From the NCBI GenBank assembly GCA_000182565.2, contig KQ257454.1: a DNA stretch of 64,000 bases; one strand, 5' to 3'. Of this stretch, positions 1-17,250 are shown piece after piece. The notes beneath the pieces were generated by a model. It was given only the letters and a program-made list of their open reading frames with translations. It had not been told where the DNA came from and searched no databases. Every line of letters starts with the position of its first letter. Positions within the stretch are counted from its first letter, which is position 1. The stretch comes from Spizellomyces punctatus DAOM BR117. Lineage: Eukaryota. Both the position numbers and the translations under genes were made by a program.

Positions 1-123
1 GATGTGAGAGACAAATGGGGGTTTCATGGTCCTGGACATTTCGTCCTGTCATGTCTGATATAGAACTCAAGCGGATGGCTCTCCAGCCATGCTGGAACGA
101 ACGCTCCTAAATCCAATCAAGAG

Positions 124-783
124 ATGAGGTATCCGATAAACCATGGTAGCGATGGATACAAGAATGATATAGACCTTAACAAAAGAATCAAACAAATGCG
201 CGAAGGTCATGAGAAAAATGTAGAAGATGAAAGGCGCGAGAATATAAAGATTGCTAGCATACAACGTTTCCGCTCTAGACATGGAATCTACAATCCTGGG
301 GAGAGTTTGCTAGAGACAACAGGATTGGGAACTCGGGGTACGGATATTTCGGCAACAAGAGACCAATTTAACGCTCATCGGGGACCTCAAACAGATACTT
401 CCCGAAATATATTCTATCAGGAAGACACACCAAGTACGGTATCGGAATTTATGTTACATCGAAGACCTGATACTGATACAGATATTGAACTGGCTATAAA
501 TACACCGCTACCTATATCTCCTATTTCGGATGCGATTGTTCCCGGTTCGGCTGCCACACCTGAAATGACATTTTCAACTCCAAGCGACATAACAACAAGG
601 GTTCTTTCGTCCCCTAGTCTGGTCGAAAGAACCGACCCAAGAGATTCTTCAAGAAAACAAGTATTCAACCCAAGAACGGGTTTGTGGATATTCAAGAATG
701 GAAATACACACAAGGAATTAAAGAGGGAATGGAGAAGTCATGGTAATGCTACTCCCAAAACATGGAAACATGTTCCTTATTAG
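124..783 (+). CDS. Hypothetical viral-type protein with C-terminal NPxTG (2-cysteine-adaptor-like) motif
   Basis: 219-aa intronless ORF; VFNPRTGLWIFKNGNTHKEL at 661-720. Confidence 0.6.
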   Translation: MRYPINHGSDGYKNDIDLNKRIKQMREGHEKNVEDERRENIKIASIQRFRSRHGIYNPGESLLETTGLGTRGTDISATRDQFNAHRGPQTDTSRNIFYQEDTPSTVSEFMLHRRPDTDTDIELAINTPLPISPISDAIVPGSAATPEMTFSTPSDITTRVLSSPSLVERTDPRDSSRKQVFNPRTGLWIFKNGNTHKELKREWRSHGNATPKTWKHVPY

Positions 784-844
784 GGAGTTTGTTGGCAAAG
801 CCAATGAACAAACTATGTTTTTTATTTTCTATTTACAAAGCTAA

Positions 845-1633
845 ATGCCAAGAAAGAAGGTTTCTATGCCGGCACAGACAGCGCCCCTTGTGGGCGCGCT
901 GGGACGAAGTCCAAGTGCCAATGCCGGCTTCGGCATCCAAGACCCCATACCAGAGGAAGAAGTACTGCATCGGGAATCAAGCGACGAGGATGAAGAAGAT
1001 GAAGAACATCAAGATTATGTCCAAGAACTTGTCAATAAGTATACAGCGCCCCCCCAAAGGGGGGGTGCGCTGGAACGAAGTTCAACAGCGCTCCCCAACA
1101 ATAGCAAGGAACAAAATGATGCGCCATTACCCAAGAAACGTAGTGCATCAGAAAAGCAACGGGCTCACCTAGAAAAGACCCGAGAGAAGGCCCTTCAAGT
1201 CAGACGAGAACTTGCAGCAAAGAGGAAAGAAGAAAAGGAACTCGAAAGAAAACGTAAGGAAGAAGAAAGGATTTTGGCTAAGGCTGAGGCTCTTATGGAG
1301 CAAGAGAGACGTATCGAGGCAAGACTTCGTGCAAGGGACGTTGAAAAGGAAATAAAGAAGACTTCTCCTGTTGTAAAAAAGCGAGTAAAAACACCCATAC
1401 CCAAACCCAAGAAAAGACAACACATTGTAGTTGAGGAATCTTCAGATGAATCTTCTTCAGACGATTACGAAATTGTCAAAGTCATAAAGAGAAAACGCCC
1501 CGCCCACCAAACTACTGAAAAATACGCCGAAGCCAACTTACTCCCTGTTGAACTTCGTTCCAACGCACCCCCCCAAAGGGGGGGCGCTGTGCACTCGCAA
1601 AGGGTCCATTCATTCTTTGACGACATAATATAG
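845..1633 (+). CDS. Charged coiled-coil protein of putative viral origin, with in-frame palindromic insertions
   Basis: 262-aa ORF; SEKQRAHLEKTREKA followed by a K/E/R-rich helix and KPKKRQHIVVEESSDESSSDDYEIVKVIKRKRP; APPQRGGA occurs twice, encoded by hairpins. Confidence 0.65.
   Translation: MPRKKVSMPAQTAPLVGALGRSPSANAGFGIQDPIPEEEVLHRESSDEDEEDEEHQDYVQELVNKYTAPPQRGGALERSSTALPNNSKEQNDAPLPKKRSASEKQRAHLEKTREKALQVRRELAAKRKEEKELERKRKEEERILAKAEALMEQERRIEARLRARDVEKEIKKTSPVVKKRVKTPIPKPKKRQHIVVEESSDESSSDDYEIVKVIKRKRPAHQTTEKYAEANLLPVELRSNAPPQRGGAVHSQRVHSFFDDII
878..914 (+). repeat. GC-rich double-hairpin element, copy 1
   Basis: ACAGCGCCCC-TTGT-GGGCGCGCTG followed by GGAC-GAA-GTCC. Confidence 0.7.
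1043..1088 (+). repeat. GC-rich double-hairpin element, copy 2
   Basis: ACAGCG-C7-AAA-G7-TGCGCTG followed by GAAC-GAA-GTTC-AACAG. Confidence 0.8.
1545..1590 (-). repeat. GC-rich double-hairpin element, copy 3 (inverted relative to copy 2)
   Basis: Near-perfect reverse complement of 1043-1088, except one substitution and the loop (AAA on the + strand in both copies). Confidence 0.8.
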
Positions 1634-1720
1634 ACAATGCTTCCACAAGGGGGAGCCAAGACGTGTTGACGAACACCTACTTTATTTCTAAGCTATGATG
1701 ATAAAAAGGAAAAGAAGAAG

Positions 1721-2159
1721 ATGCCTTTGCCGAATAGCATTCAAGGCACTTATACAGTACGAAGAAATTTTGAAGTTCTCGACAATTTCAAGTCTGGGAA
1801 AATTAGAGCCGATTTCATCTATGGAGACAGTTTGCAAAATAGAAATGGTATAGTAACTATTCTCGATTTGGATAGTGGTACACCTAGCCTGTCTATTGAA
1901 AAGAATAATGGAAAATATCTAATATCTCTTGAAGAAACAACCTATCAGTTTCCACTCTATATAGATAATACTAGAAATGTCAGCCTTGTGATGGATAACA
2001 CCCTGCTTATAACAGAAAACGGACTATCAGTTAGCCGAGAACCGCTCCAGCAACCATTATATCGTGATGAGTCATCACAGGCTATTGGTATACAAATTGA
2101 TGATGATGAATTGAAAGTGGATAATGAAAAATTGACAGTTGTTCCTTTGAATTACGAGT
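1721..2159 (+). CDS. N-terminal part of a fibre-like protein with adenovirus-shaft-like repeats (runs into the gap)
   Basis: FPLYIDNTRNVSLVMDNTLLITENGLSV...QPLYRDESSQAIGIQIDDDELKVDNEKLTV shows PL-x-hydrophobic beta-spiral periodicity; frame is open up to the Ns. Confidence 0.55.
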
Positions 2160-2800
2160 NNNNNNNNNNNNNNNNNNNNNNNNNNNNNNNNNNNNNNNNN
2201 NNNNNNNNNNNNNNNNNNNNNNNNNNNNNNNNNNNNNNNNNNNNNNNNNNNNNNNNNNNNNNNNNNNNNNNNNNNNNNNNNNNNNNNNNNNNNNNNNNNN
2301 NNNNNNNNNNNNNNNNNNNNNNNNNNNNNNNNNNNNNNNNNNNNNNNNNNNNNNNNNNNNNNNNNNNNNNNNNNNNNNNNNNNNNNNNNNNNNNNNNNNN
2401 NNNNNNNNNNNNNNNNNNNNNNNNNNNNNNNNNNNNNNNNNNNNNNNNNNNNNNNNNNNNNNNNNNNNNNNNNNNNNNNNNNNNNNNNNNNNNNNNNNNN
2501 NNNNNNNNNNNNNNNNNNNNNNNNNNNNNNNNNNNNNNNNNNNNNNNNNNNNNNNNNNNNNNNNNNNNNNNNNNNNNNNNNNNNNNNNNNNNNNNNNNNN
2601 NNNNNNNNNNNNNNNNNNNNNNNNNNNNNNNNNNNNNNNNNNNNNNNNNNNNNNNNNNNNNNNNNNNNNNNNNNNNNNNNNNNNNNNNNNNNNNNNNNNN
2701 NNNNNNNNNNNNNNNNNNNNNNNNNNNNNNNNNNNNNNNNNNNNNNNNNNNNNNNNNNNNNNNNNNNNNNNNNNNNNNNNNNNNNNNNNNNNNNNNNNNN
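2160..2800. other. Assembly gap (N run)
   Basis: Run of N. Confidence 1.
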
Positions 2801-3064
2801 AAACTAAACTAATGGGTGTCGCTGCACCGCAACTGATTTATTGGTGGCGGTACTGATCTCTTCCTTTTCCGCACTGGCTCGGGCCTCCACAGGTTGTACG
2901 AGGCACGCTGAAATCTAATGCGCCAATTGCCATTCTCCGAACCGGTTTTTTCGGTCGCGGTAACCCAATCGGTGGAGTTGGTCACGCGATTCGTGCTTCC
3001 CGCGTCCGATTTGGGCTTACTCGCGATCTCTCGAAGACGTCCTCGTCGTTACATCCCCCCTTTG
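2801..3064 (-). mobile_element. Partial 3' LTR plus polypurine tract of a Gypsy-like element
   Basis: Minus strand reads AAAGGGGGGA (PPT) directly followed by TGTAACG (LTR start at 3053); AATAAA further in; truncated by the gap. Confidence 0.55.
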
Positions 3065-3102
3065 AAGAGCCAACGCACCGGCGCTCCGAGCGGGGGTGTT
3101 GG

Positions 3103-6100
3103 TGTTGGGGAAAGTCGAGAAATAGATGTTATCCTACAACTAGACTGGGTGCACCTGAGAGGTGGATAGCCATGTTAGAAGCTATGCCGTCGCTAGAGAA
3201 CGTCTCTGGGGACTTTGTGTCGAAAGAGCAGCGAAAGAGTTGTATTACAGAAAGAAAAACGGGGTCCTAAATATAGTACAGATCACATGATGACAACCTG
3301 ACTTCGACCTCTAATTTTGGGCGCATAAAGCAACTAACTAACGAAGTGTTTCGACAAGCTTGTAGCGCGGATTCAGGGCTTTCTAGAACCGTCTTGGTCT
3401 TGTCGATAAGTTAATAACTCGCTAAGTTATTCAAGTTACCGTCCCATGGCAACTTCGATGAAATCAATCAATTAATTCCAACACTTCCCCTCGCCCAAAA
3501 TTCCATTCTATTCTTAGGCTCTTTTGTTTGTTGCGTCATCCAGTGATTGAACGCCAAGTTCTACACAACACTGGGCAAACCTCGGTGCAGGAATTGCCTT
3601 GGTAAGAACATCTGCAGTCATCTGTTGAGTGGGGCATCTTCTAACTGAAATCTCGCCACTCTGGATGTGTTCCCTGAGGAAATGATAGCGTATATCAATA
3701 TGCTTCGTCCGTTGTGAAATCAGGGTGTTCTTTGCCAGTTCCATCGCGCCGTTGTTATCCATTTTGAGCACAGTAGGGCCTTGTTTGACTTCCAAAAACC
3801 CGAGCTCTGCTAAGAGGTTTCTCATCCAAATAACCTCTCGTGCACAATCTGATGCCGCAATATACTCTGCCTCAACTGTGGAGAGTGCTGTGCATCTCTG
3901 CTTTGAAGATTTCCAAGCAATAGCGCCGCCTGATAGCTTGAGAAGCCATCCTGAGGTTGACTTCCTATCTGAGAGGTCTCCACCCCAATCTGCATCGGAA
4001 TAGGCTTCCAGATCGTCGCTGTTTTGCTGATAAACAAGCCCGTAGCTTGCTGTCTTTTGCAGGTACCGAAATATCCTCTTTATGCCCGTCCAGTGCATGT
4101 TTCCAGGCGCCTCACAGTGCCTAGCAAGTATCCCAACTGCTGTACTGATGTCAGGCCTAGAGGCAATCGCAGCAAACATCAAGCTGCCTATTGCACTGCG
4201 GTACTTCGATTTATCTACCATGGGTTGCCTTGACCCAAGAGCCTCAAATCGAACAGAGGTATCCAGTGGGGTCGACACTGGGTTCGAGTTTTCCATCTTG
4301 AATCTTCTGAGCACTTCACCAATGTAATGTGCTTGATCCAGGGAAAGAATGCTGCGCGGTTCATCTCTGATTACCCTTAAACCCAAGATGTGGTGGATAG
4401 GGCCAAGATCCTGCATCTTAAATCGCGCTGACAATGTCGTTTTGACCCAATTCATGTCTTCTTTTGACTTGGTTGCAATAACCAGATCATCGACATAAAC
4501 CGCCAGTATGATGAGCCATTTGTTTATGTTTGCGCACTCATCTTTCTCATGTGGTTTGGCTTCCTGAACCTCTTCCCCTTGCCAAATGTAAACACAAGGC
4601 TCGTGCGCCAGCTGTTTAAAGCTGTTTTCGAGGAGGTACGCATGCAGGGTATGGTTCCATAGCCTTCCAGCTTGCTTCAAACCGTAGAGACCCTTCTTCA
4701 ACAAGCAAACAAACTTGTCTGGTGGGTGCTCTGTTGAAATTCCTAGGGGTTGCTCCACATACAGCTCTGAATCAACCTCGCCATTCAGAAATGCTGTTGC
4801 AACATCCATTTGATCCAATAAAAGCCCATGCTTTGCTGCCAGGGCAAAGATCAGTCACAGAGCAGGGAAGGAGATGACGGGTGAAAAGGTCTCATCATAG
4901 TCCAATCCATGGATTTGACTGTACCCTTTGGCTACAAATCTCGCTTTGTGCCTTTCTACAGTGCCGTCAGTCTTCCGCTTTGTTTTATAGACCCATTTGC
5001 TGCCAATTACAGGCCTTCCAGAGGGTCTGGGGATGATTTCCCACGTCCCATTTTCGACCAGTGATGCATATTCAGCCTCCATGGCTTGCATCCAGGCTTC
5101 TTTCTGGGGTGATCGCAGCGCGCCATTAAGTGTTTTTGGGTCTTCATGGCCGAAACCTTCTTGCTGCATCTCCAGATCTGTGGTGGTGGTGGTGGGGGGT
5201 CCTGAAGGCGTTCCTAGGTGTGCATGGAAGGCGTCAACATCGTTGTTTTCTCCTTCCAAATCACTGGGGAAATGCTGCTGTTCCCAGAGGTCAAGTGTGA
5301 CAGTGTCCTTGACATGCTCCAATGGCTCCCAAGTACTCTCAGTTCTGGGGTAACCCTTCCATTTGACAAGGTAGTATGTCTCGTCGCCTTGTTTATCCTC
5401 AGCAAGGATCTCCTCCACAGGGAACTCCTGCTCTTCTTCTTCCAGAAGTGAACCCATCAGTTCAGAGCATGCGTCAGATTGCCCTTTAACTGCCTCATCA
5501 AATGCCACATCCCTAGACTCCAACATAGTGTCATTCTGGGGATTCCACAGTCAATAACATCATGAATTTTGCCCATAACCAACCAGAATCAACTTTGCTG
5601 ATGTGGGATCCAGTTTCCCTCGTAGTGGCTTCAGTATTTGCATGTAGGCAATGCATCCAATTGCTCTCAGATGGTCTACATTAGGGTGTGCCCCTGTCAA
5701 GGCCTCAGAGGGGGTAATCTTCCTCTCCAGCAGCACCTTGGTCGGGCTCAAATTCCTCAAATAATTGGCAGATTCCCAGACTTCTGCCCACAGCTTCTGG
5801 GGGAGGTTATTCTCGTGCAGAATAGACCGAACCTTATCCTCCAGAGTCCTGTTCAATCTCTCAGCAGCTCCATTCTGCTGGGGAGTATAGTGCATCATAG
5901 TTTGGTGGGTGATGCCCTCAGATTTGAGGTAGGCATCAAACTGGTGGTTCACAAACTCACCGCCGCCATCAGTTCTGAATGCCTTGATCGTCCTTTCAGT
6001 CAGATTCTCGATCCAGGCCTTAAATTCCTTGAACTTTTCTAGGCACAACGTCGCTGATTTCGAGTCGAGATAGAAGCATTTGCTATATCTGCTTCCAAGA

Positions 6101-8576
6101 TCCAAGAATGTGAGCACATATCTGGCTCCACCAAGCGATTTGGTGCGTATTGGTCCACATATGTCGCTACATATGACCTCCAAAAGCTGGTAACTCTTCT
6201 TGGGTGATTCAGGAAAGGGCAATCGTGTTTGTTTACCCTTCTGACATCCATCACAAAGCTGGTCTTCAACCACTGCTTTGCCATCAAAATTAAGACCATC
6301 AACCATACTGGTGAGCGTCTTCAAATTGCCATAACTTAAATGGCCTAACCGCCGATGCCACAGCTTCAGTTTCCCGCCATCCTGCTTCTCAGGGCAACCC
6401 AAAGCTTGGTCTTCATGCTGTACTTCAGCTCCCATCACTTGGGAGTCACAGCTCGCGCTGCCAGGGTAAGCAGCAAGCTTGTAAAGCTCCCCTTCCCTGT
6501 TTCCTGCAGCAAACAATCGCTTATCTAGATGGAATTCCACTCCTCCAGACTGCGAAAAGGTGACGTCCATGCCATTGTCAATAATGGCTCTGATAGACAG
6601 AAGATTGCAGCCCAACTCTGGGGCATACAGGACGTCCTGCAACACCACCTGCCGTTGATGTTGCTGTCCTGGAGTCTCCAACTCCAGGGGGATAGTACCA
6701 ATGCCTTCTGCATTGATAACTTCGTCATTTGCAAGCACAATTTGTCGTGAAATGGGCCTCAGATTGACAAAGAGTTCTTTGTGGGGACTCATATGCTGGC
6801 TACAGCCCGAATCAACTATAAATTGGACCTTCTTGCTGTAAGATTGCTGTGGTAGCTTCCTGCTAATCAAAGCAATGGCTTTCGCATCGTCCTGATGACC
6901 ATCCATTTGTTTATCCACAGCCAGCTTGGCTGTACTGTCTCCCTTGGCTGTTCCAGTGGTTTGCGACCCGCTCTTCTCCTTCATGGCGCATTGGTATGCA
7001 AGATGGCCTGGGTTCCCACAGGTAAAACAGGTCTTCTGCATCGTCTGCTTCTTGCCATTGGTGCCGTTGGTCGCCTTTCCATAGCTCTGGGAGTTGTGGG
7101 ACTGTTTCTGGTCGTCATATTGGTTCGTCTTAGCCGCATTGACATGAGCTTTCTTCCCTTGCTTTGACTGGTTGAATACCCGTGGGTTGTTGATGTATTC
7201 CAGTCTCAAAACAGCCAATTTGAGCGTCTCCATGCTGTCCAAGTTCGATGGATTTGCCTCAATGCTGGCTCTCAAATCCTTGCGCAATCCTCGCAGGAAT
7301 AATACCTTCATCACCTCGTCATGCAGCACCGTTGTTTGCATGGATAGATTGGTGAACTGGTCAATAAACTCGACAATGGTGAGGTTCTCTGTGTCCTGAG
7401 AGATGTCGAAAAGTCTCTCCAGAGTTTTCCTCTGGTAATCTGGGGGTGTGAAGCGCTCAAGCAGAGCCTTCCGCAGCTGACTCCAAGTCCTGATTCGCCT
7501 TGGATCATCCTCCTCAACCTCTGTGAGGTGGTTCCCCCAAAAAACCTCTGCAGAATCCTTCAGCTTTGACGTGGCAACCTTCAGTTCCAGTCTGGGGGGC
7601 AGTTCTGCTATGCTGAAGTACTCTTCAAGTTTGCGCACAAACTCTAGCAGCTTATTAGTGTTGCTACCACCATGGTAGCGAGGGACTTCTTCCCTCAAAG
7701 TCTTTAGCACCTGCTTCTCTTCCTCATGAGAGAATGTGCTCCGAGAGCCTTCTGACTTGATATCTGCATCCCTATGCCTCAAGTTCTGCTCTGGTTTGAA
7801 TGGCACCTCCTGCACCATCGTAGGAAGTGTTTCCGCGGCTCTAGCTGGCTGGGTTTGGGTCCTCTGTCTCAAAACTTCCTGAATATTGTTCAGAAGCTCT
7901 CTTCTGAACATCCTCATCTCGTCCTTGAACTCCAAAAAGGACTCCTGAGTGAGGTACTGGGGCTCGTCTTGAGCTTCCAGGTAACTACTGATGTCGTCGT
8001 CCTGAGCTTGCTGAGCTTCCCTTCTGGCGTGCTCTTCAATCTCCTCAAACTGACCAGAAAGAGACATCTTTCTCTTTCCCTTTTGCGCTGGTGTTCTGTC
8101 CAGGGGCATCCTTTGCTTCCTTTTTCAATACACCGCTCAGTAGTTCGTATTCGCGTTGTTCTCAGCTGTCTGACAGGCAACCAGGGCTCATAACCTGTTG
8201 GGGAAAGTCGAGAAATAGGTGTTATCCTACAACTAGACTGGGTGCACCTGAGAGGTGGATAGCCATGTTAGAAGCTATGCCGTCGCTAGAGAACGTCTCT
8301 GGGGACTTTGTGTCGAAAGAGCAGCGAAAGAGTTGTATTACAGAAAGAAAAACGGGGTCCTAAATATAGTACAGATCACATGATGACAACCTGACTTCGA
8401 CCTCTAATTTTGGGCGCATAAAGCAACTAACTAACGAAGTGTTTCGACAAGCTTGTAGCGCGGATTCAGGGCTTTCTAGAACCGTCTTGGTCTTGTCGAT
8501 AAGTTAATAACTCGCTAAGTTATTCAAGTTACCGTCCCATGGCAACTTCGATGAAATCAATCAATTAATTCCAACA
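3103..8576 (-). mobile_element. Ty1/Copia LTR retrotransposon family A (Gypsy-type Gag, chromodomain after integrase)
   Basis: 381-bp LTRs at 3103-3483 and 8196-8576 (TG...CA, one mismatch by eye); PBS GGTTATGAGCCC at 8184-8195; PPT at 3484-3496; domain order PR-IN-RT-RH. No TSD (GTTGG vs GGTAC). Confidence 0.95.
3514..8109 (-). pseudogene. gag-pol polyprotein of Copia-A with three in-frame TGA stops
   Basis: CCHC knuckle CFTCGNPGHLAYQC, protease VDSGCSQHM, LWHRRLGH, integrase DICGP/TDGGGEF/AERLNR, chromodomain, RT QMDVATAFLNG/YVDD, RNase H YSDADW/KHIDIRYHF. ORFs 5560-8109, 4855-5526 and 3514-4818 are all in one frame. Confidence 0.93.
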
Positions 8577-8577
8577 G

Positions 8578-10725
8578 GTACAGCCTGACAGTTGGCTATA
8601 TTCATCTGGGGGAACATCTTTCGAGAATGTAACATCATCTCAGATGAAAGGCATCCTTGATATCGCTACGAATGCTAGTGTAAATACACTTATTTCTGGT
8701 AAACAGAACAACATCACTACATCAACTAATTTGAGTGTTGCTTCAGTTACTTCTAATGGTTATCTAACGGTTCTCAATGCCGCCAATCCAACGTATATGT
8801 CCCTGGTGAACACAGCATCAAATGTGACATGGGGACTTCGAGTCGCAGGTTCTTCAGCAGATGGGGTTTTGTCTGCCGGTGGGTTCAGTTTGAACTGTAG
8901 TGCTAATAACATTGGCTATGTTTTCAAGATTACTAATACTGGTATTACTCAGGTGACATGTACCACGGATTCCTCATCTGCAACAACAGGTTCTCTACAA
9001 GTTGCAGGAGGTGTTGGAATATCGAAGAATCTCTACTGTGGAGGAAGTCTGTACTCCAATAATCTGAAAGTTGCGACTGAAAGTTATGTAGGAACAGCCA
9101 TTGCTTCAAAACAGGCATCAAGTCCGCTCCTAGATTCTATAAGCGGCCTTGTACCAGCAGCGAATTCATTTATCATAGGAAGTTCTGCAACTTCCTTCAC
9201 AGTTAAAAGTCCAGCAGAAGTGAGAGCGATTTTAGGTGTTACTGACGTAGACATTTCAGGGAAACAAAATGCTTCACCATTACTCGATTCTATCTCTTCA
9301 TTGACACCAACGAGTGGAATGTTTGTTATGTCTGATGCCACAGGGTTTGTTCTTCAGTCCACGAGTACGGTGAAGAGCATTTTAAACATTCCTGATTACG
9401 CATCAGACATCTCTACACTGCAAGCAAATGTCTCTACATTGCAAGGGAACGTCTCTACATTGCAATTGACTATTTCAACAAAACAAGATGCTCTCACAAC
9501 TTCTAGTCCATTGTCGGTGGCTACCATCACTTCCAATGATACCACTGATTCAACATCAGCCAGCACTGGAGCACTTCAAGTGAAGGGTGGAGCAGGAATC
9601 GCTAAGAAACTATGGGTTTCTGGTGCACAAATGACCATTCAGAATACTAACTATAGCGTTGGCCAAACCAATACCCTCATGTTCTCACATGCAACTCAGA
9701 ATATATGTTATATACAATCCTATCTCCCAGGTAGCAACAATGTAGACCTAAACTTTTTTGTCGGGTCAAGTAATTCATCCATTCGAAGTATGGTGCTTAA
9801 TGGAGCAACCGGAATCGCCTATTTTGACAGAGGCATAGTGGTGTCAAGTACCACCGATTCCACATCTATAATGACAGGTGCACTTCAGGTTGCAGGAGGA
9901 ATTGGAGTCTCCAAAAACATCTTCGCTGGAGGAGACTTGACCATTGGAAACAATAATGTAAGTGGATTACATTCTCTTGTGGTGAGGAACACAGACACAG
10001 GAACGAATGCTTGTTCGATTTTGTATCTAACTGCATCTGGTGGTTCTTCCGTTCTTTTTATGAATGGAAGTAATCGTTCAGTGGATGGAGGGCAAAATTG
10101 TTTAACTCTTCGTAACGATGTGGGAGCCTTACGCCTTCAATCTCAGGGAGCAAAAGGCATTTACGTTTATCCTAATACAGGTAATGTTGTAGTTGAAAGC
10201 ACCACTCCAGCCTTATTGAGTACAACTGGCGCTTTGGTTGTGAATGGTGGTGTAGCGGTTGGGGCTCATGTGGTTGCTGGAGGAAATTTGTATAGCAATG
10301 GGCCCGTGTACTTGAATGGTCAGGTTTGCACTACTCAAGCATGGGTGTCAACTCAAGTGTTTCCAAAGATTCAAGTTTTCAAACTGTTGACTAAAGATGT
10401 TATCACCACTGGTAGTGGTACAAAGACGTTCTATGTTACTACAGCAGGCCGGGCGTTGATACGCTATACAATCAACTTGCATGGCACCAATAATGCAAAT
10501 GGGACTTTAAATATACATCTCGGAACCAATGTTGGTTCCATGGCGTCAGTCTTTTCCAGTGATTTTAACTATAATGCTGGAGTGAACCGAACAGTTTATG
10601 CCTCATTTATTGTTTCTGGCTTGGTTCCCGATACGGCCTACTTTACAAATTTTGGTGCAGTAAATGCTGCTCCGGACATAAGTACAGACATCACAACGAT
10701 AGAGATTACGGAATTGGGCCCTTAA
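8578..10725 (+). CDS. Fibre/tail-fibre-like repeat protein, 5'-truncated by the Copia-A LTR
   Basis: Frame is open from the LTR edge (VQPDSWLYSSGGTSFENVTSSQMKGIL). Four T(D)STS-TTGALQVAGGVGI-K repeats, two KQ-SSPLLDSIS-L repeats and a heptad (VSTLQxN) coil. Confidence 0.75.
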   Translation, partial: VQPDSWLYSSGGTSFENVTSSQMKGILDIATNASVNTLISGKQNNITTSTNLSVASVTSNGYLTVLNAANPTYMSLVNTASNVTWGLRVAGSSADGVLSAGGFSLNCSANNIGYVFKITNTGITQVTCTTDSSSATTGSLQVAGGVGISKNLYCGGSLYSNNLKVATESYVGTAIASKQASSPLLDSISGLVPAANSFIIGSSATSFTVKSPAEVRAILGVTDVDISGKQNASPLLDSISSLTPTSGMFVMSDATGFVLQSTSTVKSILNIPDYASDISTLQANVSTLQGNVSTLQLTISTKQDALTTSSPLSVATITSNDTTDSTSASTGALQVKGGAGIAKKLWVSGAQMTIQNTNYSVGQTNTLMFSHATQNICYIQSYLPGSNNVDLNFFVGSSNSSIRSMVLNGATGIAYFDRGIVVSSTTDSTSIMTGALQVAGGIGVSKNIFAGGDLTIGNNNVSGLHSLVVRNTDTGTNACSILYLTASGGSSVLFMNGSNRSVDGGQNCLTLRNDVGALRLQSQGAKGIYVYPNTGNVVVESTTPALLSTTGALVVNGGVAVGAHVVAGGNLYSNGPVYLNGQVCTTQAWVSTQVFPKIQVFKLLTKDVITTGSGTKTFYVTTAGRALIRYTINLHGTNNANGTLNIHLGTNVGSMASVFSSDFNYNAGVNRTVYASFIVSGLVPDTAYFTNFGAVNAAPDISTDITTIEITELGP

Positions 10726-10789
10726 AAGGGCTCACAGCGCTTGACTGAGTTTTTGCATAATTAAAAAAAAGAGAGCTAGCAAAGATAGA

Positions 10790-11107
10790 ATGCGACGCAT
10801 GGATATTGAAGGTCATTCGGTATTCAATATCAAGGATGCCGTGAAGGGCGACATGAATACCTTTTGGAGATACTGCGAAAGCATGTTAACTGGTGACAAG
10901 AAAAGAGTCATACTGTATCTTAAAAAAACAGAACAGAATGAACACATATTTAAAGAAATTATGTCGATTGTCCATCTCTCAAAACTGGATGAAATCTGTT
11001 TCCGACAATCTGGGTACTTAGCAATTTTGGATGATTGTGTTCTTTTGGGACATAATTATAATGTAAAGGTATTTGTTTTGGAAATGCGGATTGATGGCTA
11101 CTTTTAA
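10790..11107 (+). CDS. Hypothetical 105-aa protein in the putative viral cluster
   Basis: Intronless ORF 64 bp after the fibre stop, with an A-rich leader; no recognisable motif. Confidence 0.45.
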   Translation: MRRMDIEGHSVFNIKDAVKGDMNTFWRYCESMLTGDKKRVILYLKKTEQNEHIFKEIMSIVHLSKLDEICFRQSGYLAILDDCVLLGHNYNVKVFVLEMRIDGYF

Positions 11108-11180
11108 GAAACAGATATGGCAGCATTGGTTCAGACCAAAAATGAATGCTGCGAGCTAGGCGAATGAACTCCGAAGCGAA

Positions 11181-11216
11181 TTTGCACTGGACTTCATCCG
11201 TGCAAGGGGCGCTGTC
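11181..11216 (-). repeat. Variant copy of the double-hairpin element
   Basis: Minus strand GACAGCGCCCCTTGCACGGATGAAGTCCAGTGCAAA shares GACAGCGCCCCTTG and GGAyGAAGTCCA with copy 1. Confidence 0.65.
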
Positions 11217-12059
11217 AAAAATGGATTTAAAGGGAAGCATGTATGCATGTATGCAATGTGGAGATGTATGCAACCAATGGATACATCGGCAACATATTTA
11301 AAGATGTGCAACTTCTAAGAAAATTTGCTCATTTTGAACTTTTGAATCCCCGGAATTTTTGATACCAAAGCTCCACTCCATCCATCCTCCAAAAATTCAC
11401 TTTGCAAAAAAATCCAAAAAATTGTTACCATAGATGGAGCTGATGCAAAACCCTTCCTGTTCCATTCTGTCGCCCTCTGCAGCACTCGAGGAACTATCAA
11501 TAGTTCCCTTTCTCTTGTATTAACAACAAAGTCTTTATACAGCCCTCTTCCAGGGCCCAATGATGTGCAAAAAATTGTCAACTAGAGCAATCTGGTCAAT
11601 TGGCATTACATGAGGAGGCAACCAATTTGTTTACAAAAACAGACAAAGGCTACAATATATTATTAAAATAACTATTTTTCTGCTGTATACACAATTTTGT
11701 ACATGATCATCCTGCTCCATATTCATTAGCTAGCGAGGATATTCCTTTAGGGAATGAGGAATGATACAGTAGGGAGAATACAAACAGAATGGGCTGGTCT
11801 CTAGTATAGATGTATATCTATTGTATATAAGAACTACTAGAGAATATACCAGTAAGTAGGCAAAATATATTACAAATATATATATGATGCCATGAGATGC
11901 ACCCACATGGTACAGCAGTGAAGCAGCTTAGAGGTCTACAATCTATAACTGCTAACAATAATTAATACTATATCAGTCTTCATTACTCTACCATATACTG
12001 AAACAGTATCCAAAGCTGTAATCTGGACCTTGACTAGGTGCATCTTATGCTCTATGGGA

Positions 12060-15000
12060 TATTGAAACTTAGCGCTTGGAACACTGATTTCCCGTGTAGA
12101 AATCACTTCTGGAAGACCTAGTAATGCCTGTGGCCGCTAGTAAGACTTCTGGGTGCAGTAACTTGTGGGATAACACGGTTGTTTTATTCCAGAGACGTTC
12201 AAAAGTCCCCTTTATATAACCCAGTACATTCTCCAGCCTCCCTCCGCCTTTGTTTACTGTTTACATGCTTCAGCCCACTTGTTTACATGCTCAGCAGTGC
12301 TCAGCAGTGCTCAGCAGCTTCAGCCATGCCTTGGCAAACATTACCTGAAGATCTAGATCATCACAAACCTTCCAGACCTTCTAAGACTGCTTACATGATG
12401 ATTTACCCCTTTAAATCATTCACACACGCGTCTGTGATCATTCTGATCACTCTAAGTCCAATTCCCCACGTTGTAACTTAGCCAAATCAGATGTGAACTG
12501 TCTAATGACATCCCAGCATGATCTCACATGATTTATAGATCATACAGCGTGGTTTAAGCCTGAATCTCAACACTCCCACTCAGTGAATCATCTGATTTCC
12601 AACAGAGACCCATTTTACCACAAAGTTTAAGGTGCTTTGTCTTGGGTAGAGCCTTGGTGAGAATGTCAGCTGTCATTTCTTCTGTCTGACAGTACTTGAG
12701 GCTGATTTTCTTGTCTTCTACTGCTTGTCTGATGAAGTGGTGCCGCACATCAATATGTTTGGTCCTTGCATGATGTGTTGGGTTGTTGGCAAGTGCTATG
12801 GCGCCCTGATTGTCACCATACAATGTTGTAGGACCACTTTGCTGATGTCCTAGCTCGCCTAGGAGTGTTCTGAACCAGATAACTTCCTTGGTAGCTTGAC
12901 AAAGAGCCATGTACTCTGACTCTGTTGATGATAGAGCGACTGTAGGTTGCCTCTTGCTTTGCCAGCTGACTGTGCTGTTGCCAATCTTGACTAAGAAGCC
13001 AGTGGTAGACTTCCTGAAGTCCAAATCACCGCCCCAATCTGCATCAGAGTATGCAGATAGCTCCCACTTGCTCTGAATGCCGCCCAGTTGAAGTCCTAGG
13101 TCTGTGGTGCCCTTCAGGTACCACATGATCCGTTTGACTGCTATCCAGTGCTGATGTCCGGGGTTGGAAAGGTACTGGCTAACTGATCCAACTGCCACTG
13201 CTATGTCTGGTCTGGTGCCCAGCATTGCATAAATGAGACTTCCAACAGCACTTCTGAAAGGAACCCCGTTCATTTCTTGCTGTTCTGCCTCAGTTTGTGG
13301 TGACATGGCCTTGGTGAGCTTGTGGCCATTCTCTAGTGGTGTGGCAACTGGTTTGCTGTTACTCATATTGAATTTCTTCAATGTTTGACTGAGGTACCGC
13401 TGTTGGGAGAGCCAGATTGACCTGTTGACTCTGTCCCTGACCACTTGGATGCCGAGAAAATGCTCTAACTGGCCCATATCAGCCATCTTGAACCGCTTCT
13501 TGAGTTCTTCTTTGAGTTTTAACAACTCCTGGTCGTCCTTTGATGCCAGAATAAGGTCATCCACATACAGGATAAGGTGGATGCCCATCTTCTTGTTGAT
13601 GTACAGCCCGTGGTCTGATTCACACCTTTCAAAGCCAAGTTCTTTGAGTTGCCCGTCAATGACTTTGTTCCAGGCTCTTGGAGCTTGCTTTAACCCATAC
13701 AAACTCTTCTTTAGCTTGCAGACAAGCCCATTTGCCGTGGCAAAGCCTTCTGGTTGGTCCATGTAGATGTCCTCCTCAATGGTCCCATTCAAGAATGCTG
13801 TTTTGACATCCATTTGGTGAATCTCCATGTCCTTCATGGCTGCTAGTGTCAGAACTGTCCTGATGGTTGCAAACTTGACTACTGGGGCAAATGTCTCCTT
13901 GTAGTCCAGTCCTTCAACTTGGGAGTATCCTTTGGCTACCAGTCTGGCCTTGTAGCGCTCTACAGAGCCATCTGACTTGAGTTTCAGCTTGAAAACCCAC
14001 TTGCAGCCAACTGTGGATCTTCCTGGTGGTAGTTTGACTAAGTCCCATGTCTGATTCTCCATCAGAGAGTCATATTCTGCTTTGACAGCCGCCTCCCACT
14101 GTTTGGCATCATGTCTGGTCCTAGCTTCAGCCAGAGTGCTGGGTTCTTCCTGTGGAACTTCCCCAATGGTGAAGGCAAAAGCCAGGTTTGACTGAGTTGG
14201 CTTTGCAATCCACCACTCTCCCGGTGGTTTGTGAAATCTGGCACTCTTCCTGCTGAGTTCTGGCACTTCCTCAGCATCCTGGAAGTCGTCCCCATCATCT
14301 TCTGATGCTGAAGAGTTGTCTGAAGTGATGCTAGATGGTCTCTGAGTCTCTTGAACCATCCCTAGCCCTTCTTGGTCGTCCAAGAACGAAGGCTCCCCTC
14401 CCAGAGGCATCTGTAGCTCTTGGTCTTGCTGTGGTACACTCTGCAGTTGCTGCTGAGTGCTCCACATCAAGTTTTCATCAAAGATGACGTCCCTTGACAT
14501 GACAACTTGGTTCATTTCAGGTACCCACAGTCTGTAGGCCTTACTCTGAGTGCTGTAGCCGACCATGACTGCCTTCTTGGCCTTCTCATCAAGTTTTGAC
14601 CGCTTTTCTTTTGAAATATGAGTGTAGGCCACGCAGCCAAACACTCTGAGATGCTGGAGAGCTGGTTTACCGCCTGTAAACTCTTGAAATGGTGTTGATT
14701 GGTTGCTGAGTGCTGCAGTGGGGCTCCTGTTCCTGAGATAGACCGCTGTCATTATTGCCTCGCCCCAGAACTTGTAGCTGAGTCCACTGTGGTGCAGCAT
14801 GCACCTTCCCATTTCCACCAGCGTCCTGTTCATCCTCTCAGCAACACCATTCTGCTCTGGTGTGTAGGGGGTGCTGAATTGCTGCTGAATTCCCTTCTGT
14901 TTGCAGAATTTCTTGAATTCTTCGCCCACATACTCTCCCCCATTGTCTGATCTGAGAGTTTTGATCTTCTGCCCCGTGAAGTTGGTTGCCCAGGCCTCAA

Positions 15001-17250
15001 ACTCCTTGAATTTGCTGAGAACCTCACTCTTCTCCTTCAGAAGATAGACTGCCGTCATCCTTGACTTGTCATCAATGAATGTGACAAAGTACTTTGCCCC
15101 ACCATGACTTGGTGTCTTCATGGGCCCACACACATCACTGTGAACCACCCCCAGCAGTAGAGCCGCTCTAGCTGCTTCTCCCTTTGGAAAGGGACGCCTG
15201 GTGATCTTTCCAATGGCACAGGCTTCACATGGTGATATTTCTGTGTGATTCTTGACCTCCAGACCGCTTCCCAGCTGGTTCCTAGCCAAGATTTTGATGC
15301 TGTTGACGTTCAGGTGTCCTAACCTGCGATGCCAGAGGTCCAAACTCATTCCAGAGGCTATGTTTGCATGTTCTCTTGCATGAAACATGTATAGACCGCC
15401 GCCTAGAGTTCCCTGGATTGCTTCCTGACCGTCTGAAGTCTTGATACAGCATCCCTTGCTGCCAAACTCAACTTTGGCACCGTTTTCAGTGGCTCTTCTT
15501 ACTGAAAACAAGTTCTTTTCAAGCTTGGGAACAAACCACACGTCTCTGAGGGTACAGAATCGGTTTCTGCCTGTCTCAAGTGTGATCTGGCCCTTCCCTA
15601 TTGCCTGAACTGTTCTGTTGTCCGCCAGATGGACTTGAATTGGTGACATCTCCATGTAATTGGTCATCCAATCCTTCCTGTGTGACATGTGCTGTGAAGC
15701 ACCCGAGTCCACAATCCACCAGACTGCTCCCTGAGAGGTTTTGGTGTCATCTCCCAACTGAGCAAAGAATAGGAACTCATTCTGAGTTGCCTGACTGGTG
15801 CTGGCTTGATTGGCTTGTTGTTTGGTGTCCGCCAGAAACTTCCTGCAGTCCTTCTTGAAGTGGCCTTTCTTGTTGCAATAGAAGCACTTCCCTGCTATCT
15901 TCTTGGTCCCACCATGCTTGCCAACCTTCTGCCCGCCTTCCCTGCTGAAAAAGGCCTTCCCTTTGCTATCTCCTTCACTCCCAGCTTCCTTCCTGCGTGT
16001 TTCTTCATGCAAAAGCCGTGATGTGAGGAATTCCAGCGTCAGAGAATCACTCCTGGCCTCCAAAGACACCACCAGCTGTTCATAACTCTCTGGTAGGCTG
16101 TAGAGTAGGGTGATGACTTGGTCTTCTTCACTGACTGGCGCCCCAATGGCCTCCAACTGCTGAGCCATTGTCCTGACCGTGTTTATGTGTCCCAACATGC
16201 CCCCAGTGCCGTCTTCCATCTTCAGAGTGAGAAATTTCCTCCTTAGATAGAGCCTACTGGCAATTCCCTTCCTTTGGTGGACGTCACTGAGCTTTAACCA
16301 GGCCTCTTTTGCAGTTACAGCGGTCTGTACATGCATGAGTTGGGCATCACTCAGTGACAGAGCAATTACAGCCATTGCCCGCTCATCCCTTCTCCTCCAA
16401 TCCTTCTCAGAGGTTCCCTCCATGCTCTGATCCCCCTCAATAACACCCCACAGCCCCTTTTCCTTCAGCAACATCGTCATTTTGAACTTCCAGAGGTGGT
16501 AGTTCACGCCATTGAACTTTTCCATCGTGAGTTTGGTGTCCAAGTCCGTGTTTGACATGTCTGAGCTGATTTGGTGAGTGGATGTGCTGTTGGAGAAGAG
16601 GTGAAATCGTCCTGGTGTGGTAGGTGGTCCAAATATGAGGTTGGGAAGAAGATAGGTCCGTCAGGAAGATGGTGTGGCCGTCAGAAAAGAGATTTGAAGC
16701 AGGAAAATATCAGTGATAGCTATCAGGGCTCATAACCTATTGAAACTTAGCGCTTGAAACACTGATTTCCCGTGTAGAAATCACTTCTGGAAGACCTAGT
16801 AATGCCTGTGGCCGCTAGTAAGACTTCTGGGTGCAGTAACTTGTGGGATAACACGGTTGTTTTATTCCAGAGACGTTCAAAAGTCCCCTTTATATAACCC
16901 AGTACATTCTCCAGCCTCCCTCCGCCTTTGTTTACTGTTTACATGCTTCAGCCCACTTGTTTACATGCTCAGCAGTGCTCAGCAGTGCTCAGCAGCTTCA
17001 GCCATGCCTTGGCAAACATTACCTGAAGATCTAGATCATCACAAACCTTCCAGACCTTCTAAGACTGCTTACATGATGATTTACCCCTTTAAATCATTCA
17101 CACACGCGTCTGTGATCATTCTGATCACTCTAAGTCCAATTCCCCACGTTGTAACTTAGCCAAATCAGATGTGAACTGTCTAATGACATCCCAGCATGAT
17201 CTCACATGATTTATAGATCATACAGCGTGGTTTAAGCCTGAATCTCAACA
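12060..17250 (-). mobile_element. Intact Ty1/Copia LTR retrotransposon family B
   Basis: 513-bp near-identical LTRs at 12060-12572 and 16738-17250; TSD TGGGA on both sides; PBS GGTTATGAGCCCTG; PPT TGAGTGGGAG; single 1334-aa ORF. Confidence 0.97.
12554..16558 (-). CDS. Copia gag-pol polyprotein (Copia-type Gag, CCHC, PR, IN, RT, RNase H)
   Basis: [68 protein letters not shown]; uninterrupted. Confidence 0.96.
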   Translation of the reverse strand: MSNTDLDTKLTMEKFNGVNYHLWKFKMTMLLKEKGLWGVIEGDQSMEGTSEKDWRRRDERAMAVIALSLSDAQLMHVQTAVTAKEAWLKLSDVHQRKGIASRLYLRRKFLTLKMEDGTGGMLGHINTVRTMAQQLEAIGAPVSEEDQVITLLYSLPESYEQLVVSLEARSDSLTLEFLTSRLLHEETRRKEAGSEGDSKGKAFFSREGGQKVGKHGGTKKIAGKCFYCNKKGHFKKDCRKFLADTKQQANQASTSQATQNEFLFFAQLGDDTKTSQGAVWWIVDSGASQHMSHRKDWMTNYMEMSPIQVHLADNRTVQAIGKGQITLETGRNRFCTLRDVWFVPKLEKNLFSVRRATENGAKVEFGSKGCCIKTSDGQEAIQGTLGGGLYMFHAREHANIASGMSLDLWHRRLGHLNVNSIKILARNQLGSGLEVKNHTEISPCEACAIGKITRRPFPKGEAARAALLLGVVHSDVCGPMKTPSHGGAKYFVTFIDDKSRMTAVYLLKEKSEVLSKFKEFEAWATNFTGQKIKTLRSDNGGEYVGEEFKKFCKQKGIQQQFSTPYTPEQNGVAERMNRTLVEMGRCMLHHSGLSYKFWGEAIMTAVYLRNRSPTAALSNQSTPFQEFTGGKPALQHLRVFGCVAYTHISKEKRSKLDEKAKKAVMVGYSTQSKAYRLWVPEMNQVVMSRDVIFDENLMWSTQQQLQSVPQQDQELQMPLGGEPSFLDDQEGLGMVQETQRPSSITSDNSSASEDDGDDFQDAEEVPELSRKSARFHKPPGEWWIAKPTQSNLAFAFTIGEVPQEEPSTLAEARTRHDAKQWEAAVKAEYDSLMENQTWDLVKLPPGRSTVGCKWVFKLKLKSDGSVERYKARLVAKGYSQVEGLDYKETFAPVVKFATIRTVLTLAAMKDMEIHQMDVKTAFLNGTIEEDIYMDQPEGFATANGLVCKLKKSLYGLKQAPRAWNKVIDGQLKELGFERCESDHGLYINKKMGIHLILYVDDLILASKDDQELLKLKEELKKRFKMADMGQLEHFLGIQVVRDRVNRSIWLSQQRYLSQTLKKFNMSNSKPVATPLENGHKLTKAMSPQTEAEQQEMNGVPFRSAVGSLIYAMLGTRPDIAVAVGSVSQYLSNPGHQHWIAVKRIMWYLKGTTDLGLQLGGIQSKWELSAYSDADWGGDLDFRKSTTGFLVKIGNSTVSWQSKRQPTVALSSTESEYMALCQATKEVIWFRTLLGELGHQQSGPTTLYGDNQGAIALANNPTHHARTKHIDVRHHFIRQAVEDKKISLKYCQTEEMTADILTKALPKTKHLKLCGKMGLCWKSDDSLSGSVEIQA

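Follow-up and report, generated by a model that had tools for sequence, protein, structure and literature searches.

Viruses with DNA genomes are barely known from fungi, and the chytrids are the group in which they are now turning up. A compact block of genes at 1–11107 of a 64,000-nucleotide (nt) stretch of contig KQ257454.1 (assembly GCA_000182565.2; the whole stretch is hereafter the window) raises the question of whether Spizellomyces punctatus DAOM BR117 carries the remains of such a virus, and of which kind. A preliminary description of the window, made from the sequence alone, had assigned it to a fungal genome, correctly, as the host is the chytrid S. punctatus, and had read the block as the right arm of an integrated Polinton-like virus (PLV) or virophage-sized element. 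We put at roughly 60% the probability that 1–11107 is the decayed structural-gene module of an endogenous virus of the PLV type, belonging to a diverged multi-copy family. The earlier interpretation stands in so far as this is a viral-type gene block, being intronless, closely packed, present in several copies of conserved order, provided with two fibre genes and related to PLV and virophage contigs. Its place as a right arm stays conjectural. The element is not intact: the copy in the window is broken by a frameshift, a gap and a truncation at a long terminal repeat (LTR), and is silent in one RNA run.

Gene order and copies of the block

The block consists of five intronless open reading frames (ORFs), all on the plus strand and tightly packed at 3–2159 and 8578–11107 (Table 1). 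The spacers between them measure 61, 87 and 64 nt, with GC contents of 0.30, 0.40 and 0.38 respectively, and coding sequence occupies 95% (4459 of 4689 nt) of the two virus-like parts, for which GC content is 0.42 compared to 0.47 in the host part of the window (35–64 kb). A compact, intronless array of 15–40 kb within a host chromosome is a trait of PLVs and Polintons, and the block agrees with it in compactness and in the lack of introns. The ORF list, the spacer composition and the coding density bear out the co-oriented, intronless ORFs with short AT-rich spacers that had been described at the outset. The contrast then drawn with intron-bearing host genes is real for the one host gene in the window on which it is based, that for ribosomal protein uL16 (approximately 54.85–55.75 kb), which is spread across three frames with a gap of about 60 nt between its last two exons. 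When 13 proteins of the block were compared with the window by tblastn, discarding rows of 45 bits or less, matches fell at 82–2158 and 8689–10722 only, and no further piece of the block was found elsewhere in the 64 kb.

Outside the window the block recurs on at least six S. punctatus scaffolds. Paralogues of genes 1–4 were located on six, distinguished by the scaffold sizes given with the search matches. ORF1 is 53–64% identical to its paralogues SPPG_05631 and SPPG_08556; gene 2 has paralogues in SPPG_09549, SPPG_09293 and SPPG_09453 and three further relatives in read assemblies, at 46–58% identity; ORF3 shares 70% of its 146 residues with SPPG_05486 (735 aa) and has a second paralogue in SPPG_08833; and gene 4 is represented by SPPG_02563 (50%) and SPPG_05633 (77%). 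SPPG_05631, SPPG_09293 and SPPG_05633 lie together on one scaffold and SPPG_08556 and SPPG_09549 on another. The 2231-aa model SPPG_08833 runs through stretches resembling genes 2, 3 and 4, in this order. Gene order is thus conserved among copies that share 50–77% of their amino acids, and identities of this size point to copies that are old or of independent origin. No paper was found under six locus-tag stems that cover SPPG_03315 and some of the paralogues.

Fibre genes and viral relatives

ORF3 and ORF4 are genes of the virion-fibre type. Gene 3 resembles the adenovirus fibre in its PLY.D…L.(I/V)…GL.V repeats and through its homologue in Fimicolochytrium jonesii (P0135), which passes the Pfam threshold for Av_adeno_fibre (39.4 bits, cutoff 22.7) and scores just under that for Adeno_shaft (28.3 bits, cutoff 30). 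Unlike the adenovirus protein it has no recognised knob domain, and ORF3 on its own stays below the Av_adeno_fibre cutoff (E 0.24, 11.7 bits).

ORF4, a 100% match to the S. punctatus DAOM BR117 protein SPPG_03315, is built from TTDSxSxxTGALQVxGGxGI repeats and an NG.NR..DGG.N.LT.RND.G..RLQ module and matches PHROG 697, annotated as 'structural protein' (E 2.9e-6). The TTDSxSxxTGALxVxGGxGI modules are shared with the S74 tail fibres of phages and giant viruses, and a 1674-aa relative from a read assembly combines an N-terminus of the ORF3 type with repeats of the ORF4 type and ends in Peptidase_S74 (E 9.5e-15). Unlike those fibres, ORF4 ends without S74, in a private beta-rich domain of about 120 residues that is seen only in its paralogues and that forms the presumed host-binding head. 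The structure predicted for ORF4 had a mean predicted local distance difference test (pLDDT) score of 34.

Two observations concern the ORF4 sequence itself. The public model SPPG_03315 (596 aa, start MGFCLP|VTCTTD) seems to place an intron, at 8862–8953, inside what is a continuous frame of 715 codons. In a DNA run of 2026, positions 9657 (C>T, 7 of 7 reads) and 10588 (C>A, 8 of 8 reads) differ from the window, through either a strain difference or an assembly error.

Relatives of ORF4 outside the chytrids were sought with five metagenomic fibre proteins (alignment A2), and five of the 160 contigs fetched were annotated, namely the top three by ranking, the contig with the best tblastn match and that of the best database match. 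The last of these, L160 (21.9 kb), encodes P0004, the best non-chytrid relative of ORF4 (E 2.5e-56; tblastn 100 bits), together with pPolB, a GH18 chitinase, the fibre, VLTF3 and an A32 ATPase. VLTF3 and A32 are also present on L001 (14.5 kb; 78.6 bits to ORF4), and L003 (19.7 kb) has pPolB, GH18, VLTF3 and A32 in the order seen in L160. A Sputnik-type major capsid protein (MCP) is encoded on L002 (16.6 kb; 48 bits), and L005 (8.8 kb; 87.8 bits) has two fibre genes only. On this sequence evidence, the closest outside kin of ORF4 appear to lie on small viral genomes of the PLV or virophage type.

Some further features of these contigs may be recorded. L160 and L003 have in common the order pPolB (minus strand), an ORF of no known function, GH18 chitinase, fibre and VLTF3 (minus strand), and in L160, L003 and L001 alike a K/E-rich protein of about 220 aa, ending …GHMNRMYSMIF, is encoded immediately upstream of the A32 ATPase. 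The assembly under which L160 is filed is cyanobacterial (Microcoleus), and the contig is probably a co-assembled virus.

The remaining proteins of the block are less informative. An NPRTG…KNG motif is present at the C-terminus of ORF1. The 2-cysteine adaptor domain is typical of large DNA viruses; ORF1 has no match to Pfam 2C_adapt and no cysteines flanking NPRTG, and its paralogue P0122, at 19.3 bits (E 1.3e-3), stays below the cutoff of 22, so that neither a score above the gathering threshold nor a pair of conserved cysteines was found. Of the virus-like protein features claimed in the preliminary description, the fibre repeats are upheld and the NPxTG motif is not. The structure predicted for a gene 1 paralogue had a mean pLDDT of 46, with only residues ~280–315 at 65–80, and the paralogue gave no usable match in the ESM Atlas. 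ORF5, a candidate gene, had neither relatives nor a family in Pfam, PHROGs or the tblastn and profile searches of viral and metagenome loci; its best ESM Atlas matches were clusters at 0.89–0.91, with recognition below the useful range. Sequence searches of the PDB gave nothing beyond one chance-level match (E 0.053).

Decay of the window copy and a double-hairpin repeat

That the block in the window is a dead, decayed copy is evident at three of its genes. The upstream piece of gene 1 aligns to approximately residues 90–110 of SPPG_05631 and SPPG_08556 (…TFRPVMSDIELKRMA…), and relative to both paralogues at least one frameshift around 80–120 splits it from ORF1. By this alignment, which corrects the preliminary description, ORF1 is the frameshifted remainder of a longer gene, and the window copy of gene 1 is accordingly a pseudogene. 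Of the roughly 735 codons of gene 3, 146 precede the scaffold gap in which it stops. Gene 4 has lost its 5' end to a copia LTR that cuts into the repeat module: the frame is open back to the LTR edge at 8578 and the 22 codons ahead of the ATG can still be aligned with this module (E 5e-5), hence at least 200 codons are missing. In all, genes 3 and 4 lack about 2.5 kb, a length exceeding the nominal 641 bp of the gap.

The interrupting Ty1/copia element has LTRs of 381 bp that are 99.7% identical and end in TG…CA, and it presents the Pfam domains Retrotrans_gag, Pol_BBD (beta-barrel protease domain), rve and RVT_2 in this order, with pol split into three ORFs. A 5-bp target-site duplication (TSD) was not found, the flanks being GTTGG and GGTAC, which fits recombination, deletion or a scaffolding problem. 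Between its integrase and reverse transcriptase, at 4855–5526 on the minus strand, lies a chromodomain (Pfam Chromo, E 1.1e-12), a domain typical of Ty3/gypsy chromoviruses.

The window copy is also apparently silent. Among approximately 26 million RNA-seq reads (~6% of one run), depth was 0–0.41 in every ORF bin, against 9–20 over the copia LTR and up to 182 at 2801–3200; silence here means absolute depth in one RNA run over a mapped stretch that contains no host gene. An independent DNA run of 2026, from chromatin immunoprecipitation sequencing (ChIP-seq), gave an even, single-copy depth on both halves of the block (~0.5–2.9 per direction).

The two halves are linked by a short repeat. Four occurrences of the 10-mer ACAGCGCCCC lie in the 64 kb, at 878, 1043, 1581 (minus) and 11206 (minus), all in virus-like parts, where 0.05 occurrences would be expected in 64 kb and none of 100 shuffles reached four. 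The claim that one hairpin family flanks both sides of the interruption is therefore confirmed. Copies B and C, each 46 nt long, are inverted with respect to each other and 91% identical; copy A aligns to the degenerate copy D with a score above all of 200 shuffles; and in copies A and B the predicted fold is a pair of adjacent hairpins (z = -3.0 and -4.5). All three copies within ORF2 preserve the frame, at sites that are gapped in relatives or, in paralogues from S. punctatus, occupied by other repeat peptides (AGRHAGHGVANPGRD repeats), which suggests that a small palindromic element entered gene 2 while the gene was still under selection. Double-hairpin elements are known from the mitochondrial DNA of Allomyces, and palindromic elements from Rickettsia. 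As in those systems, the units are short, GC-rich and two-hairpinned and lie in both orientations, in frame, at variable sites of a gene; unlike them, the present repeat is in nuclear or viral DNA, four copies are seen and its mobility is only conjectural. A separate idea, that hairpins after the stop codons serve as 3'-end signals, was discarded, as the four flanks gave z of -0.2 to -1.3, no better than shuffles.

Table 1. Position, strand and character of features at 1–12059 of the window.
Feature	Position	Strand	Remarks
Gene 1, upstream piece	3..107	+	35 codons, frame 3, truncated by window edge
Gene 1, remainder (ORF1)	124..783	+	219 codons, frame 1
Gene 2 (ORF2)	845..1633	+	262 aa, K/E-rich coiled coil
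Double-hairpin copy A	877..920	+	in frame in ORF2, at 11-residue insertion missing from 6 of 6 relatives
Double-hairpin copy B	1043..1088	+	in frame in ORF2; encodes …APPQRGGALERSSTA…
Double-hairpin copy C	1545..1590	-	in frame in ORF2
Gene 3, start (ORF3)	1721..2159	+	first 146 codons, enters N gap; predicted fibre N-terminus
Scaffold gap	2160..2800		641 N
High-copy transcribed repeat fragment	2801..3102		302 bp
Ty1/copia LTR retrotransposon	3103..8576	-	LTRs 3103–3483 and 8196–8576
Gene 4, C-terminal part (ORF4 = SPPG_03315)	8578..10725	+	715 codons; ATG-start ORF 8644–10725
ORF5	10790..11107	+	105 aa; candidate gene
Non-coding tail	11108..12059		GC 0.38, up to first LTR of 23-kb retrotransposon nest
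Double-hairpin copy D, degenerate	11181..11216	-	downstream of ORF5

Origin of the block

Several results weigh against a PLV-type origin. The Pfam, PHROGs and tblastn searches found no double-jelly-roll MCP, penton, A32 ATPase, VLTF3, pPolB, primase-helicase, integrase or protease in the window, which the element exits at its left edge; the A32 ATPase that Pfam and PHROGs did not find here is nonetheless encoded on the ORF4-relative contigs L001, L003 and L160, and the virophage MCP (MCP_V20_C or Sputnik_MCP_1st), likewise not found in the window with Pfam, on L002. ORF4 resembles viral contigs in its repeat region only (about residues 100–590 of 715), repeats of this type are widespread in phage and giant-virus fibres, its head domain has no outside relative, and L003 has no direct tblastn match to ORF4 at E 1e-3. 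When six window peptides were compared by tblastn with 159 viral and metagenome loci, ORF4 alone matched (222 segments in 97 loci), and genes 1, 2, 3 and ORF5 found no relative there; nor were relatives found by IMG/VR scans with ORF4 alone or with the alignments of genes 1, 2 and 3. A profile search of the 8,057 ORFs of the fetched loci gave one weak match for gene 2 (E 0.038) and left gene 1, gene 3 and ORF5 unmatched. Gene 2 was considered as a counterpart of the PLV gene upstream of A32 in L160, L003 and L001 (tblastn E 0.026 and 0.079), but the link failed the profile test (hhalign probability 13%) and both are K/E-rich and of low complexity. Finally, given an unbridged join across the gap and a copia element devoid of a TSD, rearrangement or mis-scaffolding of the local structure is possible.

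The same results can be read in favour of a chytrid lineage-specific gene family, for example of surface or adhesin-like repeat proteins, amplified with transposons and having gained its fibre repeats from a virus once or by convergence. Relatives of genes 1–3 come only from chytrid genomes and read assemblies and never from a recognisable viral contig, the locus adjoins a 23-kb transposon nest and no hallmark gene was seen in the window. We nevertheless regard this origin as unlikely. The genes are intronless, 95% coding and of conserved order in an intron-bearing genome, their homologues carry the S74 chaperone domain and adenovirus-fibre repeats, the copy is frameshifted, truncated and without RNA, unlike a maintained host family, and a PLV has already been published for S. 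punctatus.

The next candidate is an endogenised giant virus (Nucleocytoviricota, such as the Mycodnaviridae of zoosporic fungi) of which the block would be a fragment, and here we judge the case improbable. Giant viruses also carry long fibres of beta-strand repeats; repeats of the ORF4 type match many large IMG/VR contigs, two records of giant-virus metagenome-assembled genomes (L116 and L156) among them; and the sub-threshold 2C_adapt match in the gene 1 paralogue involves a domain of large DNA viruses. Giant-virus genes are moreover reported, as far as the main text of that study goes, from 17 zoosporic fungal genomes, including those of the Spizellomycetales Gaertneriomyces and Fimicolochytrium (PMC13533422), and this counts for such an origin; the same main text does not name Spizellomyces. 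Against it, the strongest outside relatives of ORF4 are on PLV- or virophage-type contigs of 14–22 kb, and no nucleocytovirus core gene (MCP, PolB, A32, VLTF3 or D5 helicase) was found in the window.

That the left part, 1–2159, is a contaminant or a mis-scaffolded contig joined across the gap is very unlikely. The unbridged gap, the missing TSD of the copia element, the high copy number of the 2801–3102 repeat, whose other copies continue differently, and the missing 2.5 kb, too long for 641 bp, speak for it. Against it, both halves have equal low depth in the 2026 DNA run of the same species label, all occurrences of ACAGCGCCCC in the 64 kb are divided between the two sides, and the succession of genes 2, 3 and 4 recurs in SPPG_08833.

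Under the PLV-type origin that we prefer, a small virus with a double-stranded DNA genome, most probably Polinton-like, would have integrated into the S. punctatus nuclear genome with genes in the order gene 1 (~325 aa), gene 2 (~260 aa), gene 3 (~735 aa), gene 4 (at least 960 aa) and ORF5. Gene 3 would have encoded a fibre with adenovirus-type shaft repeats and gene 4 a beta-strand-repeat fibre with a C-terminal head, and we infer that capsid, ATPase and replication genes were formerly attached to the block. In the window copy gene 1 is frameshifted, gene 3 has lost most of its length and gene 4 its start, their place being taken by the gap, the repeat fragment and the copia element. The right end of the virus-like DNA is somewhere within 11108–12059; no terminus could be defined in this interval, where the only inverted match to the left part is hairpin copy D, and the terminal inverted repeat proposed earlier at 11300–11600 stays conjectural.

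One PLV integrated in S. punctatus has already been reported, and the main text of that study describes an 'S. punctatus group' that comprises 27 PLVs and in which 52% have a chitinase (Bellas & Sommaruga 2021, PMC7805220). The present locus is at most a further degraded member of this published kind, and may be the published element itself or one of at least five further loci. As far as that account goes, it shares with the published PLV the host species and an intronless, compact layout, and with the group a chitinase link, as the best outside relative of ORF4 is on a contig with GH18; unlike the published element, the window copy is broken and silent and has no MCP, ATPase or integrase within the window. 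Fibre genes are not mentioned in the main text of PMC7805220.

On its own the locus is a broken remnant; what it contributes to the published finding is a structural-gene module and a repeat family. Should the paralogous loci be separate PLV-type integrations, S. punctatus, which can be cultured and transformed, would offer a tractable host for their study, and the present fibre genes would become the first candidates for the components with which a fungal DNA virus recognises its host. We would go further only tentatively, to a proposal that is possible yet more doubtful than not: that S. punctatus carries a chytrid-specific lineage of small DNA viruses, its loci (at least six, 23–50% divergent) representing repeated invasions, with virions bearing a long fibre of adenovirus type and another long fibre of beta-strand repeats, and with genes colonised by a mobile, in-frame double-hairpin element that would be the nuclear or viral counterpart of the Allomyces elements.

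The surroundings of the block are rich in repeats. Rfam and tRNA scans of 1–12600 gave no matches, and thus none to the fragment at 2801–3102, which is not viral and is possibly ribosomal DNA spacer or another abundant repeat. It continues into the gap, and its other copies continue differently on both sides. DNA depth over it is about 70 per direction, against 1–3 in the flanks, and RNA depth reaches 182, with RNA ends clustering near 2837–2864. On the right, a 23-kb nest of LTR retrotransposons adjoins the block from 12060 to approximately 35000. Its first member, at 12060–17250, belongs to a second copia family and was probably active recently; it retains an intact polyprotein ORF of 1334 aa (12554–16558, minus strand) between 513-bp LTRs that are 99.8% identical. 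Six more LTR copies and a Ty3/gypsy-like pol (29422–32994) fill the window to about 35000.

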